From a virus: DNA of 25,976 bases. The notes under the pieces are model-generated. The model had not been told where the DNA came from. It did not search any database and worked only from the letters and a program-made list of their open reading frames with translations. Shown in pieces: positions 3,169 through 23,329 of this stretch. The stretch lies in UHGV virus genome UHGV-1612078; one strand, written 5' to 3'. The position numbers and the translations under genes were made by a program. Within the stretch, counting starts at the first letter, position 1; each line of letters begins with the position of its first letter.

Positions 3169-3783
3169 ATGAAAATGAAAATGCAAAGTGATTTCAATTC
3201 AATGTTTGAAGAGTTCCAAAGACAGGTTGATGTTCCAGACCAATTACTAAATGCTCTTAAACGCATGGCAGAAGGACGTAATTACTATTGGGGGTCTTCA
3301 TATGAAACTGATGAAAGCCTTTCCGGAAGATTTTCTAGAGGTAAAAAGTCTTTAATACGTCCTGGAATACTCATTAACAGTATTGAATCAATTCATTCAT
3401 TGACGTGTGATTTTGATGTTGAATTTACTGATTTCATTTCTCCTGAATGGACGGTTTGTTATTTAAACGACGATTTTGATTATCTCGGTGTTTATAGTTT
3501 AAGTGACGCATGGTTTAAACGTAATTTACAAAAGTCAAATTTATTTTATATTGATACTACTGTAAAATTTCAGGGCAAGAAATATTTCTTTACTCTTATA
3601 GTTGATTCTGAAACGAAGCATGAAAATAAACGTATTCTTAGTAAAAAGAATATCTTAACTATTGTTGATGATCTTTTTGATAAATTTGTAGAAAATCCCA
3701 ATTTTGAAAGTGATTTATTACTAGAAAAATTTGTTAAGGAATGTAGAGAATATGTCAAAACCATCACTATACCTTCCAAGTAA
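3169..3783 (+). CDS. hypothetical protein (204 aa)
   Basis: ORF with SD ggag upstream. C-terminus EKFVKECREYVK shares the junction motif seen in the following tandem genes. Confidence 0.6.
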   Translation: MKMKMQSDFNSMFEEFQRQVDVPDQLLNALKRMAEGRNYYWGSSYETDESLSGRFSRGKKSLIRPGILINSIESIHSLTCDFDVEFTDFISPEWTVCYLNDDFDYLGVYSLSDAWFKRNLQKSNLFYIDTTVKFQGKKYFFTLIVDSETKHENKRILSKKNILTIVDDLFDKFVENPNFESDLLLEKFVKECREYVKTITIPSK

Positions 3784-4144
3784 ACCTGTGAAGTATGAAC
3801 CAAAGCGTCAGCTAATTCCTACTGATATATTAATAGGTCCTGTGACAGCTATATCATTTGTAATTCTATTGATTATTGGAGGTGTTTTAGATGTTATGAC
3901 TGATATTGATTCTGGCGTAATATTTCTGTTAGTATTAATTCTTCCATTAGTAGTTCCATTTTTATTAGTACCTATAAATTGGGTAGGATACTGGTATCAA
4001 GGAAGACACTATCGTAAACGTGTACGTGATTGGAAAGCCCAGTGCAAAAAGATTAAAAAAGAACATCAGCTTAAACTTGATATGTATGAATTTAATGAAA
4101 TTATGAAATTTGTTAAGGAATCACGATGCAAAAGCCAAAATTAA
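3752..4144 (+). CDS. small membrane protein, paralog 1 of tandem array
   Basis: Two hydrophobic segments (AISFVILLIIGGVL; FLLVLILPLVVPFLLV). Start ATG 3752 after aagga. C-terminal motif FVKESRCK. Confidence 0.55.
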   Translation: MSKPSLYLPSKPVKYEPKRQLIPTDILIGPVTAISFVILLIIGGVLDVMTDIDSGVIFLLVLILPLVVPFLLVPINWVGYWYQGRHYRKRVRDWKAQCKKIKKEHQLKLDMYEFNEIMKFVKESRCKSQN

Positions 4145-4488
4145 ATAAAGTCAAATATTCGTTTCCTGAGGCACTATTAATTCTTGCTGTATCAGTATTT
4201 GCAGCTCTTGCGGGTAGTCTTATTGGATTGTTAATTGACTGTTTTATTTTAAACATTGACGGCACAGTAATTATAACAGAGGTTTGGAGTGAACTTCGTT
4301 ATACTATAGCGATTTCATTATTTTCATTCTTTGGTACTATGTTATATTTTCATTATGATAATTTTAAAATAAATTGGCAAAGAAAAAAAGATTACAAAAT
4401 ACAATTAAAAGAATATAATAGCTACATGTCTTATATTGAAAAAGAATCAATGGAAGAGTTTGTGAGTAATTGTAGGAAAATCAAATGA
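4126..4488 (+). CDS. small membrane protein, paralog 2
   Basis: Hydrophobic segments (LLILAVSVFAALAGSLIGLLI; ISLFSFFGTMLYF). C-terminal EFVSNCRKIK. SD aagga. Confidence 0.6.
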   Translation: MQKPKLNKVKYSFPEALLILAVSVFAALAGSLIGLLIDCFILNIDGTVIITEVWSELRYTIAISLFSFFGTMLYFHYDNFKINWQRKKDYKIQLKEYNSYMSYIEKESMEEFVSNCRKIK

Positions 4489-13094: not shown

Positions 13095-13283
13095 ATGAAA
13101 ATTGAAGCACTCAATCAAGAAGGAAATATCTACGTCATCATTAATGGTGATTTTTTCGTCGACATGGATGAAGTTACTAGTGAAGAACTTGTAGAACTTC
13201 TTAAGAAACGTTATGATATGTGTGATGAAGCTGCAACTCATATGGCGTGTGCAATATTCTCTCTTTCATATGTGGTGGAATAA
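13095..13283 (+). CDS. hypothetical small acidic protein (62 aa)
   Basis: ATG 13095 after SD gaggag. The track ORF start at 13050 is translated leader. Confidence 0.55.
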
Positions 13284-13486
13284 TGACTAGCATTGAACAA
13301 GCAGATAAAATTAAAGAATTGGTAGCTTTAATTCGCAAAGCAGATGAGGAACTTAGTGACTTTGCTTGGTTTTCGTCAGGCATTGCAAATAAAGGCATTG
13401 ATGAACTTGAAGCTAAAGTTGATAATGCTTTAGAAGCGTTAGATATGTTTCTTGATGAAATTATCGATCATAATACGAGAGTTTAA
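13283..13486 (+). CDS. small helical protein, paralog family A-like
   Basis: taATG coupling. [27 protein letters not shown]... Confidence 0.5.
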   Translation: MTSIEQADKIKELVALIRKADEELSDFAWFSSGIANKGIDELEAKVDNALEALDMFLDEIIDHNTRV

Positions 13487-13878: not shown

Positions 13879-14059
13879 AATCTTGTCAACTGCCAAGGAG
13901 AAGAGAATGAAAGTTTTGTTTGTTGTGTATGTGATGATTCAATATAATTACCCAATGTTTACTTATAATCTGGTGAACAACATTATTGATATTATTCAAA
14001 GGAGTATGTAATGACAAGTGAGCAGGCTTTTAAATTACGAGAATTAATTGAAACTTTAA

Positions 14060-14879: not shown

Positions 14880-15401
14880 ATGTTTATTTCAAGTGGAAGC
14901 GGTTTAATTCGTGTTGAATTTAAAAATGACATCTTTCTTAGTCAAGGAGATGATATTATTAAAATGAGTTATGACGAAATCAAGAAAATTTGTCATGCTC
15001 TTGAAAGCCGTGGAAAAGTAAATGCTGTTATTGACATTGGTGATTTATGGGTAACACTTTATGAAGTATCCGAAGGATTTAACATTGAAGATGAAAATAA
15101 CATTTTAGCTATTGATAAAAGAACTGATTTGCTTGATGTATTAAAAGCCTATGAGCAGTCAAATGGCGGAAGAAAAGCTGTATTGATTTATCAAAAACCG
15201 CATTCATGTGGAACTGCTTCAATCATTTCAAATATTGAAGGTGAAACTGATACTTATATGTGTGTTTTAAAAGCTGGTGGTGACCGTCATCCGGATTTTA
15301 TTTCTATTCGTCAAAACAATGGAGAAATTTCATTATCAAAATCAGAAGCTGAAGCTATGATTAAGTATTTAACAACTGTTACACCTTCAATGAAAGGATA
15401 A
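14880..15401 (+). CDS. hypothetical protein, paralog pair B (2 of 2)
   Basis: SD gagg. C-terminal ...IRQNNGEISLSKSEAEAMIKYLTTVTPSM. Confidence 0.6.
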   Translation: MFISSGSGLIRVEFKNDIFLSQGDDIIKMSYDEIKKICHALESRGKVNAVIDIGDLWVTLYEVSEGFNIEDENNILAIDKRTDLLDVLKAYEQSNGGRKAVLIYQKPHSCGTASIISNIEGETDTYMCVLKAGGDRHPDFISIRQNNGEISLSKSEAEAMIKYLTTVTPSMKG

Positions 15402-15403
15402 TT

Positions 15404-15865
15404 ATGATTATTAATGAAAACTCTTGGCACTATAAATTATTCAAACTGTTTAACGATGAATGGCAACGACCTAAGACACTATGCGCATATTTTTGGTCTA
15501 TTGCCATTCCTACATTTTTCGTTTCTATTTTTGGGTGTGCTATACTCGTAGGGCTAACAATTATTTGTGCAGAAAGCCTACAACGTTGGCTTATTTTCGG
15601 TAGTTTATGGACTCTTCTTCCATCAGCATTTATACTTGCGCTTTTGGTTGTTTTACTTATTATCGGTTCATTTGTTATTCCTGCACATTTGCATGAAAAA
15701 TATAAAGATTATAAATGGAAAAAGGATTATGCTTTACACGTAGAAAATATTGATAGGGCGTATAAAGGTTTACCTCCTATTCAACCCAAGAAATCGATTA
15801 TCGTTGAATTTTTAAAAGCTCGTAAAGCTAAAGTATGTCCTGTTATTGAATATAAGGCTGAATGA
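15404..15865 (+). CDS. membrane protein (2 predicted TM segments)
   Basis: Hydrophobic stretches FWSIAIPTFFVSIFGCAILVGLTIICA and LWTLLPSAFILALLVVLLIIGSFVI. Confidence 0.6.
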   Translation: MIINENSWHYKLFKLFNDEWQRPKTLCAYFWSIAIPTFFVSIFGCAILVGLTIICAESLQRWLIFGSLWTLLPSAFILALLVVLLIIGSFVIPAHLHEKYKDYKWKKDYALHVENIDRAYKGLPPIQPKKSIIVEFLKARKAKVCPVIEYKAE

Positions 15866-16875
15866 TGAAAACAGTAATGAAAAGCTATTTTGGTAGTCAT
15901 CTTTATGGAACTTCTACCCCAGAATCTGATGTAGATTTTAAAGAAATCTTTGTTCCTTCTGCTCGCGATATTCTTATCGGAAATGTTAAAGAGCATATGA
16001 GTAAAAACACTAACAACACATCATCTAAAAACACTAAAGATGATATTGACCATGAACTATACAGTCTTAAATATTTCTTTAAATTAGCAGCAGATGGTGA
16101 AACTGTAGCATTAGATATGCTTCACACTCCACCTGAACTAGTGGTTAAATCTGATTTGCCTGATGTGTGGAAGTTTATTCAAGACAACCGTTCTCGTTTT
16201 TATACGACTAACATGAAATCATATTTAGGATATGTCCGTAAGCAAGCTTCTAAATACGGTGTCAAGGGTTCTCGTTTGGCTGCATTACGTGATGTATTGA
16301 AAGTAGTTAATCAAATCCCTGAGCAATGGGTTGATTACCAAGAAGATGGTTCTATTAAGCAGCGTCGCACTAAAGTTGAAGATATTAAGCATCGTCTTCC
16401 AGAAAACGAATTCTGTGAATGGGTGTTCCATAATCATGAGAAAACAGGCCCACAAACGTTCTACACTGTGTTGGGTCGTAAATATCAGACAACGCTTTCT
16501 CTTATTGAGCTTAAGCAGTCACTGAACAAATTAGATGCTGAATATGGTGAACGTGCTCGTAAGGCTGAAGCCAATGAAGGTATTGACTGGAAAGCTCTGA
16601 GCCATGCTTGTCGTGGTGGACTTCAACTATTGGAAATTTACAAAACTGGCGACTTGATTTATCCACTCCAAGATGCTCCATTTATTCTCGACGTGAAGTT
16701 GGGTAAACATCCATTTAAAACAGTCCAAGAGTTTTTGGAAGATGTGGTCGATCAAGTAGAAGCAGCATCTACTGAAGCTTCTAAGAACGGTATGCAACAA
16801 AAAGTAGACATGAGTTTCTGGGATGACTTCCTTGAGAAGGTCTATCTTGAAAACCATCGAAGTTATTATAAATGA
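15862..16875 (+). CDS. Pol-beta-superfamily nucleotidyltransferase (predicted)
   Basis: N-terminal motif YFGSHLYGTSTPESDVDF fits hG[GS]x3Gx5SDhD. ATGA coupling to the upstream membrane-protein gene. Strong terminator immediately downstream. Confidence 0.65.
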   Translation: MMKTVMKSYFGSHLYGTSTPESDVDFKEIFVPSARDILIGNVKEHMSKNTNNTSSKNTKDDIDHELYSLKYFFKLAADGETVALDMLHTPPELVVKSDLPDVWKFIQDNRSRFYTTNMKSYLGYVRKQASKYGVKGSRLAALRDVLKVVNQIPEQWVDYQEDGSIKQRRTKVEDIKHRLPENEFCEWVFHNHEKTGPQTFYTVLGRKYQTTLSLIELKQSLNKLDAEYGERARKAEANEGIDWKALSHACRGGLQLLEIYKTGDLIYPLQDAPFILDVKLGKHPFKTVQEFLEDVVDQVEAASTEASKNGMQQKVDMSFWDDFLEKVYLENHRSYYK

Positions 16876-16877
16876 TA

Positions 16878-16901
16878 GGGAGCCTTCGGGCTCCCTTTTT
16901 A
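16878..16901 (+). terminator. rho-independent terminator
   Basis: gggagcc-TTCG-ggctccc followed by TTTTT. Confidence 0.7.
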
Positions 16902-16924
16902 TTTCAAAAATTTTTCACAAAGTT

Positions 16925-16954
16925 GTTTACAAGCATAAAGCTTTATGGTACTAT
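16925..16954 (+). promoter_or_regulatory. T4-type early promoter
   Basis: GTTTAC at 16925-16930, 18-bp spacer, TGg-TACTAT. Leader ggtactatacaactatcaact as at 2118 and 19082. Confidence 0.55.
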
Positions 16955-16988
16955 ACAACTATCAACTGATACGGATTTGGAGAATAAA

Positions 16989-17957
16989 ATGAAAACTGTA
17001 ACTATCAATAAGGGTATTTACTTCGGTAAAGAAATCTCTGGAACTTTTGAGCTCTTAGGCGAATGGTTCCCAGATAATGCTCCGGTAGATGCGCAAGGAG
17101 ATGGTAAAGTTTTTGTTGAAATTGACGGTAAGCGTCGCGGTGTTTGGGTTTACAAATCAGACATTTCATATGATGGTGTAAAAGTTGAAGAAGTTAAAGA
17201 ATCATATGAAGATATGAAAACCCGCATTAATAAAAGATTTAATGTTATGGGAATGATGACGAATGGTATTATTAACGGAAACATTCGTTCATTAATTATC
17301 TCAGGAGCAGCAGGCATTGGTAAAACGTATTCTTTAGATAAAGCTTTAAATAAAGCAAATGATATTGGATACATTGAGTATAAAAGCATTAATGGTAAAA
17401 TCTCTGGTATCGGTCTTTATGAGCAGCTTTGGAATAATCGTGAAGAGAATTCTGTCCTTTTGATTGATGATGTGGATGTTTTCTCTGATATGGACATTCT
17501 TAATCTTCTGAAAGCTGCTCTGGACACTGGAGAGACCCGTAAAGTCTGCTGGAGCACTGCATCTTCTTACTTAGAAGAAAAAGGCATTGAGCGTGAGTTT
17601 GAATTTAAAGGAACGATTGTTTTTATCACAAACGTTGACATTGACCGCGAATTAGACCGTGGTACTAAACTTGCTCCACATTTACAAGCATTAGTGTCCC
17701 GCTCAGTTTATTTGGATTTGGGTGTTCACACTAATGAAGAAATTATGGTCAGGGTTGAAGATGTTATTCTTTCAACTGACATGATGCAAAAGCGCGGTCT
17801 TTCTGATGAAGAAACTTATAAAGCATTATCATGGATGAAAGTCAATGTTAATCGTTTACGCAATGTTTCACTGCGTACTGCGCTTTATCTTGCTGACTTT
17901 ATTATGACCGACAAAAACGGTTGGGAAGAAATTGCTGAAACGGTATTATTAAAATGA
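16989..17957 (+). CDS. P-loop ATPase, AAA-like (Walker A SGAAGIGKT, Walker B LLIDDVD)
   Basis: ATG 16989 after SD ggag. Walker A/B and a candidate sensor-1 (IVFITN). The upstream track extension is translated leader. Confidence 0.7.
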   Translation: MKTVTINKGIYFGKEISGTFELLGEWFPDNAPVDAQGDGKVFVEIDGKRRGVWVYKSDISYDGVKVEEVKESYEDMKTRINKRFNVMGMMTNGIINGNIRSLIISGAAGIGKTYSLDKALNKANDIGYIEYKSINGKISGIGLYEQLWNNREENSVLLIDDVDVFSDMDILNLLKAALDTGETRKVCWSTASSYLEEKGIEREFEFKGTIVFITNVDIDRELDRGTKLAPHLQALVSRSVYLDLGVHTNEEIMVRVEDVILSTDMMQKRGLSDEETYKALSWMKVNVNRLRNVSLRTALYLADFIMTDKNGWEEIAETVLLK

Positions 17958-18672
17958 AAAATATTTTACTATCTATAAAACTGAAATATTAAATTTAAAG
18001 ACAGGTATTAAGAAATACTATTATGGTCGACATATAACTAATAACATCAATGATTCGTATGTTGGTAGTGGAAATTATATAGAACGTGTAAAAGTGTCAA
18101 ATGACCACATATTATCAAAAACGGTTTTAGAAGTTTTTGATAATTATGATAAAATGGTACAAGCTGAAATATTATATATCATGGCAGGTAAATTGAAATA
18201 TGGAAAAAACTGTGTTAACCTGTCATACGGGGGTGAAGGAGGAAAGGTTGCAGATGAAACTAGGATAAAATGCAAAAAGCATTCTATAAATTTATGGAAA
18301 AATCCTAATCATATACAACATATGAAGAAAAAGATGAAAGAGGTCACATCCACGCCGGAAGCTAAATTAAACACTTCAATAAAAACTTCGCAACGATATA
18401 AGGACCCAGTTTTTGTTAGAAAAGTTAGTAATATTATTAAAAAGAAACTAAGTAATCCTACAGTAAAAGAAAAGCATATTAATGGAATTAAAGCTGCAAA
18501 GCGTTCTCATTTAACTATATGGCAGTATGAAGATGAATTATTCGAGCTTTGGAAAGAAACTAAATATGGATGGAGAAAATTTACAAAGGAAGCTATAAAA
18601 CACGGATATCCAAATGAACCGTATCGTAGTATGGTATCAACTTTTCAGAAAAGACATTTAGAAGAATCCTAA
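17954..18672 (+). pseudogene. GIY-YIG homing endonuclease (Seg-like), N-terminal frame disrupted
   Basis: Frame of the track ORF 18094..18672 extends upstream through ...GIKKYYYGRHITNNINDSYVGSGNYIERVK (GIY-x10-YIG-like plus downstream R/H). The only ATG (17954, ATGA-overlapping the ATPase stop) is in another frame and stops after 12 codons. Confidence 0.45.
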
Positions 18673-18754
18673 GACAAAAAGGAAGTTCAGAAATAGATTA
18701 TATGGACTGCCATTAAAAAGATGACTAGAATTAAACCGGTAAATGGAGGTAGTG

Positions 18755-19057
18755 ATGTTATACTCAAAGGCTCGTGAAATTTACGAAACTAAGATTAAAG
18801 AAGCTGTACTTCAATTCGCAACAACGATGCGATGGACAAATGATTGGGAATATTCAAAAAATCATAAAAAGCCCCTGGTGACAAGAAAGGCTCATATGTT
18901 AGTGTTAATAGACCGTGAGCAGATTAAAGCCCGAGAAGCCCTCCAGAATCATAAAAAGGCTGCCTTTGAATGGTTTATGGATAACACTGCTCCTGAGACT
19001 AAGAAAGCAGTGAGCGCCTGGTTCAGTGGAAAAAATTGTGAAAGAAGTTTCTTTTAG
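18755..19057 (+). CDS. hypothetical protein (100 aa)
   Basis: SD ggagg then ATG 18755. Confidence 0.5.
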   Translation: MLYSKAREIYETKIKEAVLQFATTMRWTNDWEYSKNHKKPLVTRKAHMLVLIDREQIKAREALQNHKKAAFEWFMDNTAPETKKAVSAWFSGKNCERSFF

Positions 19058-19059
19058 TT

Positions 19060-19089
19060 GTTTACAAGACCGTTCCTCTGTGGTACTAT
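19060..19089 (+). promoter_or_regulatory. T4-type early promoter
   Basis: GTTTAC at 19060-19065, 18-bp spacer, TGg-TACTAT. Conserved leader. Confidence 0.55.
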
Positions 19090-19117
19090 ACAACTATCAA
19101 CTACGGAGGAATACAAA

Positions 19118-19645
19118 ATGAACGCTAAAGATATTTTCAACCTGGTAAATTACAATGATGGTAAATTTAAATCTGAAGCGCAAAGCAAGTTCTTTAATGA
19201 CATCTCAATCGGAGGTGAAATCACTGTTGATGGAGGACAAATTTACAAATCCCGTTGGAATTGGATCGTTATTATTGATGAGATCGGTATTGTAGAAATT
19301 TACAAGAATACGAATAAAAATCGTACATTACACTGGTCTCGTGATACTAACGAACAGTACAAAAAGGATAAAGCATCTAAATTATCTCGTGTAACTCAAG
19401 AAGATATTGAGTTCATCAAGAAAGATATTTTAATGTATGATAACTTAATTGCTGAAGAGCAAGCTGTTATTGATAAATTTGATGAGATTAAAGCTTCTCG
19501 TGAAATTCCTGATTTTATGAAAGAATCAGTAAATGAACGATACACTCTCATTTCAGAGCGTATTGAAACTTACAAAAAGCAAAGAGCTGAACGCCAAAAT
19601 ACTCTTCGGAAGTTTGAAGAACGGTTAAAGACGGTACTCGCATAA
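19118..19645 (+). CDS. hypothetical protein (175 aa)
   Basis: ATG 19118 after SD ggagg. The track start at 19058 is translated leader. Confidence 0.6.
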   Translation: MNAKDIFNLVNYNDGKFKSEAQSKFFNDISIGGEITVDGGQIYKSRWNWIVIIDEIGIVEIYKNTNKNRTLHWSRDTNEQYKKDKASKLSRVTQEDIEFIKKDILMYDNLIAEEQAVIDKFDEIKASREIPDFMKESVNERYTLISERIETYKKQRAERQNTLRKFEERLKTVLA

Positions 19646-19700
19646 CCGCTTTATACCAAGGATGGTATAATGGTTCTAAGCCCTTTTAATTGAGATTATT

Positions 19701-20108
19701 ATGAAACAGTTGATAATTAAAAGATTGAATTTATTGATATGTTGTTTATGCGTAGTAGTTGCATATGGTTATTACGCAATTAATGATTATATGCATTATA
19801 AAGATTATGATGTTACTGTAGTTAATACCCTTACAGGAACTCAAGGAAAGGGGTCTAGTTTATCGTTTATTGCTGTATATGAACTCAAAGACGGTTATAG
19901 ATTTAGCGAATATATTTCACCAGAGATGTATTCATCAATAGAAAAAGGCGATAATATTACTGTAAGTTTACGTCCTTTCGACGTAAAACAGACATTGTTT
20001 GATAATATTGTTTGGTTCTTTGGAATGGTATTAGTTCAATCTGTGTGTGGTGCTTATATAGTCTGTTCCATCTTATTCTGTATATTTAGTAAAATTGAAA
20101 TTGAGTGA
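19701..20108 (+). CDS. membrane protein (N- and C-terminal hydrophobic segments)
   Basis: LNLLICCLCVVVAYGYYAI and VWFFGMVLVQSVCGAYIVCSILFCIF. Confidence 0.55.
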   Translation: MKQLIIKRLNLLICCLCVVVAYGYYAINDYMHYKDYDVTVVNTLTGTQGKGSSLSFIAVYELKDGYRFSEYISPEMYSSIEKGDNITVSLRPFDVKQTLFDNIVWFFGMVLVQSVCGAYIVCSILFCIFSKIEIE

Positions 20109-20115
20109 GGAAAAT

Positions 20116-21003
20116 ATGTCAGTAGTAATTAATAATGTCAATGCAGTAATTAAATCTTTAGTTAATAAAAAATTGAATGAATGGACTGTACTTCGTCGTG
20201 GAGAGCCAGATAAATTTTTTCATAGATTTAACCCAACTTTGGATTTGAATGTTATTGACAGAGATGTTCATGCTGAAATATTAGATAAGTTTAAAGTTGA
20301 TATTGGATTTGGATTAGATAAACATTTACAACGAACAAACGGGTCTGGAATGGGTTTATCTAATCGCATCATGAAAGCCCTTAATAAAATTGGAGCGTTG
20401 TCTCGTATTAACGCGAGTGAAATTCTTCGCAATTATAATAAAGGATATGACCTTTATGGTAGACTAATGCCGAAATTGTCATTCGATCAAATGATTGCTG
20501 ATTTGTGGGAAAATCAACGACGATTATTAGCATTAGGCGCTCGATTAGCTAAAGGTCTAGATAAACAAATGATTTTTAAGACCAATAATACAGAAGACCT
20601 TAAATGCTTTAAATTTAGTATTCGTGGAGATGATTATTACGTCAGAGCTCACTCTACAGATTATGCCAATATGGGTCATCATCTTTGTTTAGCTTTTGAA
20701 ATTTTAAAAGAAGCTGGAACATTAGAATATGTGTCTGGTGCTAAATGTCCGATTGGTTCAAGTTGTATTTTAATTTATCGCCCGGATGAATCCAGTTCAA
20801 CTAAATTGCCTACAAAACCTGTACCAGTTCGTAGTAATGAAAAACATTCTGAACAAATTGCTTATTTTAATAAGCAGATTGAAGAGCTAAATATTTCTAT
20901 TCAGCAATATGATGATGAAATTTTCAGACTATCTGGATTGAGTAGTAAAGCTAAATCTGAGCGTGAAAAATTAATTAAAATCGTTGATTTACTTAAATCT
21001 TAA
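20116..21003 (+). CDS. hypothetical protein with C-terminal coiled coil (295 aa)
   Basis: SD gagg then ATG 20116. Confidence 0.55.
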   Translation: MSVVINNVNAVIKSLVNKKLNEWTVLRRGEPDKFFHRFNPTLDLNVIDRDVHAEILDKFKVDIGFGLDKHLQRTNGSGMGLSNRIMKALNKIGALSRINASEILRNYNKGYDLYGRLMPKLSFDQMIADLWENQRRLLALGARLAKGLDKQMIFKTNNTEDLKCFKFSIRGDDYYVRAHSTDYANMGHHLCLAFEILKEAGTLEYVSGAKCPIGSSCILIYRPDESSSTKLPTKPVPVRSNEKHSEQIAYFNKQIEELNISIQQYDDEIFRLSGLSSKAKSEREKLIKIVDLLKS

Positions 21004-21011
21004 GGAACACC

Positions 21012-22034
21012 ATGAAAACTCGTTCTCAAATTGAAGATATGGTTCGTAATGCCAGCTATACTCGTGATGTTATGACATTTTTGTGTGAAAATAATTTAGA
21101 CCCTGATAAAGTTAATCGTGTTATTCATCACTTTAAGTATACGAATAGCAGTGAATGGGTGCGTAATTTTAGTAAAGCAGGGTATATTACACAAATGACT
21201 GCTCGTGAACAGCTCACCGATTTCTGTAAAACTATTGATTATAAAAATCCTTTGATTGTTCAAGGCGTTGGTCAAAGTAAGGTCGATTTATCATCTGGAT
21301 TTTTCAATCCAAATCATTATCGTATTGAATGGAGATTTATTGCTCTATTCCGTAAACAATTAAAGCAAATTTTGTCTACTGCTAGTCGATTAAAAGGCTC
21401 TGATATTAACTTAAAGAACCTGAAATTTGATGGTTATACTCTTCAGATGGAAGTAAGACCGTTAAAAGAAAATAATAGAACTGCACGAATTAGCTTTAAG
21501 CCTAATACTAAAAATTCTCTTTCAATTTGTGAATGTCTTAAATCACAGCTGACAGAAGCATTTAAGTATATGGATGTTGTTGCTGCTGTTCAATCTAAGA
21601 TTTTACCTCGTTTTGAACGATTTAAGTTAGATACAACATCATATGAACTTGATATGATCGTTTCATTTAAATACGATTTTTTGAGAAAGGACGAAGTCCC
21701 GCGAGAGAAAAAGCAGGAATTGCAAGATAACTTAAATTTATCTAATTACTTATCAAACGATCCTAAATTTTGGATGTATAGCTCAAGCAATATAGATGCA
21801 TGTAAACTTAATAAAGTGAGTTTTCTTCCTACTGAAAATTCAAATTTTAAACCTGTAGAAAAATGGCACGCTGACGCGATTGAGAAGTCTCTTAAGGCAG
21901 TAGATGATGAACTCGTTAAAGCGACCAATGAAGTGCTAGAAGCTGAAAAGGCGTTAGAACAAGCTCAGTCAAGGGTTCAAAATCTGACAAAGCAACGTTC
22001 TAAACTGAACAATGCACTAAATGCACTGAACTAG
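21012..22034 (+). CDS. hypothetical protein with C-terminal coiled coil (340 aa)
   Basis: Long ORF. C-terminal heptad-like region EAEKALEQAQSRVQNLTKQRSKLNNALNALN. Confidence 0.6.
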   Translation: MKTRSQIEDMVRNASYTRDVMTFLCENNLDPDKVNRVIHHFKYTNSSEWVRNFSKAGYITQMTAREQLTDFCKTIDYKNPLIVQGVGQSKVDLSSGFFNPNHYRIEWRFIALFRKQLKQILSTASRLKGSDINLKNLKFDGYTLQMEVRPLKENNRTARISFKPNTKNSLSICECLKSQLTEAFKYMDVVAAVQSKILPRFERFKLDTTSYELDMIVSFKYDFLRKDEVPREKKQELQDNLNLSNYLSNDPKFWMYSSSNIDACKLNKVSFLPTENSNFKPVEKWHADAIEKSLKAVDDELVKATNEVLEAEKALEQAQSRVQNLTKQRSKLNNALNALN

Positions 22035-22091: not shown

Positions 22092-23018
22092 ATGACTCGT
22101 AAACATTATATTGATTATTTTGACAGTCTTATTACTAAACACCGCAATTATCAGATCGGACACAGAGCAGTAATTAATAATATTCTTCGTGATTTCCTTC
22201 AATATGTTGGCCAGGAAAATCATATCTGTAAAGATACTCAAAACGCTTATTCTCATTCGTTGGGCAATTTGCTTGAATGGTTTAAACGTTCTCGTATGTT
22301 ATCTTCTACTGTAGCTCGTGATAACATTAAAAACTTTATGAAGCCGAGCTTCATTAAATCTGCGACATCTATAACTGATTTGGTTGAATTTACTATTGTT
22401 AACGATGTTAAAAAGACCCATTTGGCTGATTGGTTATCTACCATTCCTGAAACTAAATTTGCTGATAAATTCGCTTGTCAATTCAATGACCAAGTGAATA
22501 TGCTTTTTAAGCATGCTCGTAAACTATTTACCGCGGGCGATGACCGTACAAATACAGTTCATGTTAAGGATTGGGTTATTGCTGATGAAGTAACACACAA
22601 GCCAGGTGGTTCATCAGTATTAATTAATATCCAGGTTCCTTATTACTACTCACGTAATCTCGGCACCATGACAGCTAAAGAAATTAATAAGCACAACAAA
22701 ACTATTCGTTCGTTGTCTTATAAACTCCGCATGATGTTAAAAATTATGGACGTAGTGGAAATGTATGACGAAACCGAAGATAATGGTTCAATGTTATACA
22801 GTTCACGCATTCTAATTAAACTGAAGAACCCTAATACATATAAGACAGTTGTAAAAGAGCCTAAAGTAGAAAAGGTTGATAATCTGAGTGAAGAACGTGA
22901 ATATCTCAATGCCCGTTTGACTGAAGTTGAAGCCCAAATTGCAGAACACACCAAATTGTTAAAAGCTCTTAATGCAAAAGCAAATGGTTTACGTAATGCT
23001 ATTGAGGTATTGAAATGA
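22092..23018 (+). CDS. hypothetical protein with C-terminal coiled coil (308 aa)
   Basis: ATG 22092 after SD gaggag. C-terminus [37 protein letters not shown]. Confidence 0.6.
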   Translation: MTRKHYIDYFDSLITKHRNYQIGHRAVINNILRDFLQYVGQENHICKDTQNAYSHSLGNLLEWFKRSRMLSSTVARDNIKNFMKPSFIKSATSITDLVEFTIVNDVKKTHLADWLSTIPETKFADKFACQFNDQVNMLFKHARKLFTAGDDRTNTVHVKDWVIADEVTHKPGGSSVLINIQVPYYYSRNLGTMTAKEINKHNKTIRSLSYKLRMMLKIMDVVEMYDETEDNGSMLYSSRILIKLKNPNTYKTVVKEPKVEKVDNLSEEREYLNARLTEVEAQIAEHTKLLKALNAKANGLRNAIEVLK

Positions 23019-23329
23019 AAAAGCGTTTATTAGAAGACATTGCAGCTTCAAGTAATTCCAGTTTAATTAAAATTATTATGGCCGGTGAAGAAGACGATTT
23101 GGAAATGCGTAGAAAGATTCATGGTTGTGATGATTATAGCAGCCCTATTAATTGGGATTCTGTAATGGTCATGGTTGAACGCCGCGAACGTGCTTCTAAA
23201 AACGTTCCTAATTGCCCTGAATGTGGAACTGAACAGGTGCAATTGGTCCATTGGCAGACTAGTAATCTTCGTTATAAATGTCGCCATTGTAAACACCGAT
23301 TTGACCGAGAAGAAAATGACCAAGCGTAA
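23015..23329 (+). CDS. zinc-ribbon protein (CPECG...CRHCKH)
   Basis: Two CxxC pairs about 20 aa apart. ATGA coupling with the upstream gene. Confidence 0.55.

Follow-up and report, generated by a model that had tools for sequence, protein, structure and literature searches.

The window, by which we mean the whole 25,976-nucleotide stretch of viral DNA that was analysed (UHGV virus genome UHGV-1612078), carries between its homologs of nrdC.10 and nrdC.9 a segment that is absent from phage T4. This segment holds a long open frame resembling annotated phage endonuclease genes, with a start codon that lies in another frame. The features of the locus are as follows.

16877-16896: strong terminator-like hairpin (AGGGAGCC-TTCG-GGCTCCCT, then a T run), after nrdC.11.
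16926-16954: T4-early-type promoter-like site (TTTACA-17-TACTAT with an upstream TG), ahead of nrdC.10.
16989..17957, + strand: nrdC.10 homolog, a P-loop NTPase of 322 aa, upstream of the endonuclease gene.
17937..18668, + strand: segment absent from T4 (the endonuclease cassette, ~732 bp), placed by pairwise alignments with the T4 nrdC.10/nrdC.9 junction.
17954..17992, + strand: residual ORF by translation, ATG plus 11 codons (MKNILLSIKLKY), then TAA.
17957..17961, + strand: the lesion by alignment, a run of five As (A5) where intact relatives have six (A6, encoding Lys2-Lys3).
17962..18237, + strand: region for residues 4-95 of the intact protein, which form its GIY-YIG catalytic domain; the region is out of the ATG frame and has no start codon of its own.
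18094..18672, + strand: longest ORF with a canonical start in the ORF listing, GTG, 192 aa, without the GIY and YIG motifs.
18253..18669, + strand: region encoding the all-helical C-terminal part (residues 101-239; helices 101-238 modelled with high pLDDT).
18755-19057: nrdC.9 (DUF7203, phrog_1931).
19061-19089: a similar T4-early-type promoter-like site, ahead of nrdC.8.

Megablast places the window in Tequatrovirus (the T4-like phages), and the sequence is collinear with the early region of phage RB14 at an identity of ~96%. The order shared with RB14 is tRNA cluster, e, regB, tk, rI, mobD.x ORFs, nrdC.11, nrdC.10, RB32ORF093c, nrdC.9 ... nrdC, pin, 49. Megablast returned no phage record identical to the window; a human-gut metagenome scaffold (ERZ28598798 LIJU14-1_SAMEA2338790 scaffold_810, 32,042 bp) matches positions 15094-21672 at 100% and with unchanged coordinates, which makes it very probable that the window consists of the first 25,976 nt of this scaffold or of an equivalent contig.

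The gene upstream of the cassette matches RB14 nrdC.10 over residues 1-322 at 99.7% by tblastn, and it is annotated as nrdC.10 in T6, AR1 and RB14. Its Pfam matches to AAA_14, AAA_22 and nSTAND all fall under the curated cut-offs, and a 2006 comparative-genomics paper likewise reported the AAA match of nrdC.10 as weak. Mechanical ORF calls read through both promoter-like sites, giving a spurious 361-aa nrdC.10 and a spurious 195-aa nrdC.8. The stop codon of nrdC.10 (TGA, 17955-17957) shares bases with the ATG of the endonuclease gene (17954-17956), the two forming the overlap ATGA.

In pairwise alignments, T4 homology stops near 17936, within the last codons of nrdC.10, and restarts near 18669, boundaries that are accurate to within a few bases. 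Where the window has these ~732 bp, T4 has approximately 38 bp that take in the last codons of its nrdC.10; the C-terminus of nrdC.10 changes from ...TGYSSEINS in T4 to ...ETVLLK, and the endonuclease's own TAA sits in T4-shared sequence. The T4 annotation runs from nrdC.10 through 94 bp to nrdC.9 with no endonuclease gene between them. The first-pass annotation had described an insertion after the ATPase gene and asked whether related phages lack it. They do: in T4 and most relatives nrdC.10 is joined directly to nrdC.9, and only 67 of the 503 phage records that match the locus carry the endonuclease gene. By these alignments the gene is a free-standing intergenic insertion whose presence varies among close relatives. 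Free-standing homing endonuclease genes are typically recognised by a patchy distribution, sharp boundaries and an intergenic site beside a conserved gene (PMC2988022). The suggestion that the gene at 18755..19057 might belong to the same mobile cassette has to be dropped. That gene is nrdC.9, and its membership in the cassette is ruled out because it is present and 97-99% conserved beside nrdC.10 in T4, which has no endonuclease there; nrdC.9 is a core gene.

Several further differences from RB14 and T4 are scattered through the window. The homologs of e.4 and e.3 (82-83% aa identity to RB14, window 3752-4485), mobD.4 (84%, 13283-13483) and nrdC.2 (78% over residues 1-99, the only part that aligns, 23015-23308) are far more divergent than their neighbours (95-100%), which indicates local mosaic exchange. 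The gene nrdC.4 is missing relative to both RB14 and T4, so that nrdC.3 (22095-23015) comes almost immediately after a homolog of nrdC.5 (~21012-22004, 89% aa identity). RB14 genes 49.2 and ncORF134c are absent, and of ncORF101c only the first 15 aa find a match (14011-14055). The tRNA cluster (62-581) comprises Met(CAT), which is Ile in the RB14 and T4 annotations, Tyr, Asn, His(GTG) and Arg(TCT); tRNA-His (426-501) lies within a stretch that cannot be aligned to RB14, and unlike in T4 the cluster holds no segB gene. At 14880-15862, homologs of RB32ORF097c and RB32ORF096c occupy the position of T4 mobD (an HNH endonuclease gene), as they do in RB14 and RB32. RB32ORF096c is annotated as 'replaces mobD', and both replacement ORFs are unrelated to mobD; the window phage is therefore without mobD. 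Single-base indels relative to RB14 at 20098 (nrdC.7) and 24029 (the RB32ORF082c homolog) fall a few codons before the stops and alter C-terminal residues only. Among relatives nrdC.7 is 133-135 aa long, or 104-105 aa in some annotations.

The region 17954-18672 is, by sequence comparison, a homolog of RB32ORF093c, annotated in T6 as a "site-specific intron-like DNA endonuclease" (AXN58132.1, ABI94917.1). The best 60 of the 67 matching phage records have an annotated 720-nt gene here with an identity of 98.2-99.6%, and thus the open frame of the region is not there by chance. The gene is present in T6, RB32, RB33, RB14, RB51, RB68, RB5-10, AR1 and others. The window shares with the RB32 and T6 genes both the nrdC.10/nrdC.9 locus and the ATGA overlap, and it differs from them in having five As rather than six after the ATG, which puts it out of frame past codon 2.

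Whether the protein is recognised as a member of the GIY-YIG family depends on the depth of the search. Neither Pfam nor NCBIfam assigned a family to the window translation or to the intact T6 protein, even at E values up to 10. Deeper methods gave a different answer. The protein matches PHROG 314, 'homing endonuclease', at 5e-31; tblastn finds T4 segB (E 1e-5, 27.5% identity) and also links it to segH and to genes with a GIY-YIG or Seg-like annotation in phages of Aeromonas, Cronobacter and Vibrio. An exhaustive HMMER search recovered 1438 relatives. Among 70 aligned homologs, 29 match PF19835 (SegE_GIY-YIG), 20 match PF01541 (GIY-YIG) and 22 match NUMOD3, although NUMOD3 motifs were not detected in the endonuclease protein itself. 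The family profile aligns with T4 SegB by hhalign at a probability of 99.95% (E 1.4e-37, 195 columns), covering residues 2-219 of 221 and so reaching the SegB C-terminus. The first-pass annotation had proposed alignment to the Seg/I-TevI family; by sequence methods alone the family profile does not match I-TevI significantly (E 0.38), and phmmer against PDB sequences yielded chance matches only.

Residue conservation and predicted structure point the same way. In the 70-sequence alignment no substitution occurs at Y8, G25, Y36, G38, G40, E72 or N89, and conservation at Y23 is 90% or higher; the GIY Tyr, the YIG Tyr and Gly, the catalytic Glu and the metal-site Asn are all encoded in the window's shifted frame. 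For the equivalent of I-TevI R27, R26 and R45 are candidates, with no invariant Arg column in the same alignment. The AlphaFold model (pLDDT 95.3) has an N-terminal domain of the order strand-strand-helix-strand-helix, giving the three-stranded sheet and flanking helices of the GIY-YIG catalytic fold, and an all-helical C-terminal half, which on the model is presumably the DNA-binding or targeting part. Membership of the intact protein in the Seg-type GIY-YIG family is hence well supported. Since the profile-profile and fold evidence is positive, the silence of Pfam and NCBIfam is a sensitivity gap and is not evidence against membership; a rule that lack of profile similarity refutes the assignment, as first suggested, would have misfired for this gene.

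A characterised counterpart is T4 SegB, a free-standing GIY-YIG homing endonuclease encoded in the tRNA gene cluster (PMC2330249). Like SegB, the intact protein combines an N-terminal Seg-type GIY-YIG domain with a C-terminal helical region, and the two share the motif YxxYK...YIGxHST.N..D.Y.GSG...E...N..GG.GG. They are only ~21-28% identical, they occupy different genomic sites and presumably have different targets, and SegB is intact and active whereas the window copy is frameshifted. I-TevI is encoded in the T4 td intron (catalytic domain, PDB 1LN0), while the window gene is free-standing, and its linker and DNA-binding domains differ from those of the window gene's protein. We found no paper on endonuclease activity or cleavage by the RB32ORF093c group, and the literature on RB32ORF093c, nrdC.10 and nrdC.9 came to the 2006 comparative-genomics paper alone. 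Judged by its homologs, the intact form is a free-standing Seg-type GIY-YIG homing endonuclease gene for a putative enzyme of 239 aa.

The window copy cannot be read in this way. The observation that the sole ATG (17954) overlaps the ATPase stop, lies in another frame and ends after 12 codons is correct, with the TAA at 17990-17992. This ATG aligns with the annotated gene starts of T6, AR1 and G157lw, and the 12-codon ORF is all that the ancestral start can now yield. The other 236 codons are still there, uninterrupted and undamaged, in another frame. The frame containing ...KYFTIYKTEILNLKTGIKKYYYGRHITNNINDSYVGSGNYIERVK... is open from 17953 (after TAA 17950-17952) to TAA 18670-18672, and as first described it has no in-frame ATG; the GTG at 18094 is the first ATG, GTG or TTG in it. 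The 192-aa product that begins there is what gene callers report for the A5 allele, and exact matches to it are recorded on 4-5 contigs. No Shine-Dalgarno-like sequence was seen 5' of this GTG or of the next in-frame ATGs.

The cause of the disrupted start is the loss of one A from the A6 run after the ATG. T6, AR1, G157lw and RB14 read ATG AAA AAA TAT TTT (M K K Y F), while the window reads ATG AAAAA TAT; alignment to RB14 places the 1-nt gap at 17961, and the frame shifts after codon 2. Restoring a single A gives an uninterrupted frame of 239 aa, with 2 nt of difference from the T6 gene and no other defect. Among the best 60 phage records, 58 span 736 nt against 735 in the window; the other two, AR1 and G157lw, keep A6 after the ATG and carry their deletion at another place in the gene. 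A6 is likewise present in one IMG/VR contig and in ten contigs recovered through the exact NTPase (nrdC.10) protein, and all ten of these are called with a 239-aa gene. In total, A5 was found in the window, in three identical contigs and in SRR23924995, and A6 in 16 other loci. The window genome thus lacks the intact frame from which the enzyme would be expressed, and its copy, as read from the sequence, is a pseudogene of the Seg-type family without a working frame. Across eight intact alleles and the repaired window allele, six codons vary by synonymous changes only and five non-synonymously; such polymorphic sites are too few for a selection argument.

Other copies of this gene are broken as well. 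AR1 has T5 reduced to T4 (five Ts to four) at gene nt 458, and G157lw has A6 reduced to A5 at gene nt 252; GCA_041007275.1 and SRR30081857 carry an additional AA near codon 20, where AAGAAA becomes AAGAAAAA. The 90% cluster includes further fragments of 102, 112, 114 and 116 aa. Where copies are decayed elsewhere in the gene, the lesion is always in a homopolymer run, and at least four different homopolymer frameshifts are found in this gene across wild T4-like phages, one of them on two haplotypes. Some T4-like genomes with the endonuclease gene, whole or partial, lie inside bacterial assemblies (GCA_041007275.1 contig ABTUHW010000001.1; HBK9476300/301, PJZ22013.1), certain of them labelled Escherichia coli and one protein labelled Bacillus cereus; these are probably contamination or carry-over in isolate sequencing.

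Three explanations had been offered for the broken start: a decaying gene, a sequencing frameshift, and a gene needing non-canonical expression. Our results favour the first, make the second unlikely and lend no support to the third. The sequencing or assembly artefact, in which the true sequence is A6, the gene is intact and a homopolymer miscall lost one A, is the best of the alternatives. A 1-nt change in a homopolymer is the classic type of error, the rest of the ORF is flawless and only 2 nt from T6, and the frameshifts of AR1 and G157lw are in homopolymers too. The A5 run is agreed by three separately assembled contigs that are 100% identical to the window (UMED01029746.1, ERZ28598798 scaffold_810, and ERZ919762 k127_16470 from ERR414412, PRJEB5224), although these probably derive from one human-gut sample, are hence not independent, and may share one read set. 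The Logan contig SRR23924995_6900, however, comes from an unrelated run: it has A5, and its alignment with the window over 2109 nt shows 42 differences, seven of them inside the gene, so that SRR23924995 is an independent data set with a different haplotype. The exact A5 pattern gave no matches in IMG/VR and one in the metagenome scan.

A generally error-prone assembly is ruled out by the integrity of the window's other genes. Approximately 55 RB14 orthologs are present in a single frame at full or near-full length, no other gene in these 26 kb has a frameshift when compared with RB14, and the six remaining 1-nt indels against RB14 lie between genes or at their 3' ends. Consensus-level indel errors in Illumina metagenomes are, moreover, expected in longer runs than one of five bases. 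Because A5 recurs in the contigs and in SRR23924995, and because the window is not prone to frameshifts, we consider an artefact improbable, and the evidence favours a genuine 1-nt deletion at the level of the assembled sequence. The phage population may nevertheless be heterogeneous for A5 and A6, given that A5 is known here from assembled contigs.

Leaky or programmed recoding, in which polymerase slippage or a -1 shift at AUG-AAA-AAU restores the frame and supplies a toxic nuclease at a low level, is clearly less probable than an artefact. In its favour, the product of a -1 shift after AUG AAA would begin with MKKYFTIYK... and be the same as the intact protein, very little expression is enough for a homing endonuclease, and both A5 haplotypes are free of secondary lesions. 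The shifted arrangement is not conserved, however, since the 16 other loci have a plain in-frame A6, and G-AAA-AAU is not a canonical X-XXY-YYZ heptamer. Five As are far below the run lengths that give efficient RNA polymerase slippage, and in the RNA of 17930-18060, which is no more stable than its shuffles (-11.4 kcal/mol, z = 0.29), no stimulatory structure was found. The breakage of other copies at unrelated sites looks like decay and not like design. Nothing supports programmed frameshifting of this gene. A related proposal, that the A run at codons 2-3 is a reversible on/off switch (a contingency tract) or a low-efficiency slippage site, with A5 as its maintained off or low allele, is one to which we give slightly less credence again; if true, it would explain the occurrence of A5 on two otherwise undamaged haplotypes. 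Least credible of all is a neo-functionalised truncated product, a nuclease-dead DNA binder (repressor or target protector) made from GTG 18094 or another internal start. In its favour, the 192-aa ORF is intact and includes all of the helical C-terminal part, the A5 and +AA lesions, which are of independent types, have both spared precisely this ORF, and the I-TevI DNA-binding domain acts as an autorepressor. Against it, no Shine-Dalgarno-like sequence was seen before the candidate starts, the product would retain half a catalytic domain (residues 48-95) that is unlikely to fold alone, and the decayed copies of AR1, G157lw and FL12 lose the C-terminal region instead.

We therefore prefer the reading that the window gene is a recently inactivated homing endonuclease gene, to which we assign a probability of about 0.8. 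With no second lesion and only 2 nt separating it from T6, it would be a very recent null allele. Both the element and its state of decay are of an already known kind: frameshifts have been called a hallmark of phage homing endonuclease genes, as in the frameshifted copies of ICP1 phages (PMC10448857), and T4 carries a defunct I-TevIII (PMC2790892). The degenerate genes of this type share with the present case a small lesion in an otherwise preserved sequence, variable presence and independent lesions; the window differs from the I-TevIII and ICP1 examples in that its lesion lies at codons 2-3 and that the same lesion is found on two haplotypes. For a neutral pseudogene, the latter is a little unexpected. 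It is most simply accounted for by a slippage hotspot, or by recombination just downstream of codon 3.

For the intact gene, an early transcription unit from the promoter-like site at 16926-16954 would cover both nrdC.10 and the endonuclease. No Shine-Dalgarno-like sequence is found 5' of the ATG at 17954, and the ATGA overlap suggests that translation, starting at the ATG within it, is probably coupled to that of nrdC.10. By analogy with SegA-G, the intact enzyme would break the nrdC.10/nrdC.9 junction of a co-infecting relative that lacks the endonuclease gene, and repair of the break would copy the cassette into that junction. With A5, ribosomes from the ATG would halt after 12 codons, the catalytic domain would be left without a start, and function would be lost. 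The window allele would then represent the degeneration stage of the homing-endonuclease life cycle, a cycle that has been reviewed (PMC2988022).

Taken together, our results correct an annotation: the label for this locus should be a Seg-like GIY-YIG homing endonuclease pseudogene with a frameshift and not a 192-aa hypothetical protein. The gene itself is already annotated in phage T6 and its relatives, and beyond correct annotation the finding matters little. Nevertheless, it brings out a Seg subgroup that curated domain libraries miss, and in the window allele the degeneration phase of a homing endonuclease can be seen in a clear natural case. The intact T6 and RB32 orthologs would lend themselves readily to the definition of a new Seg cleavage site, at the nrdC.10/nrdC.9 junction.
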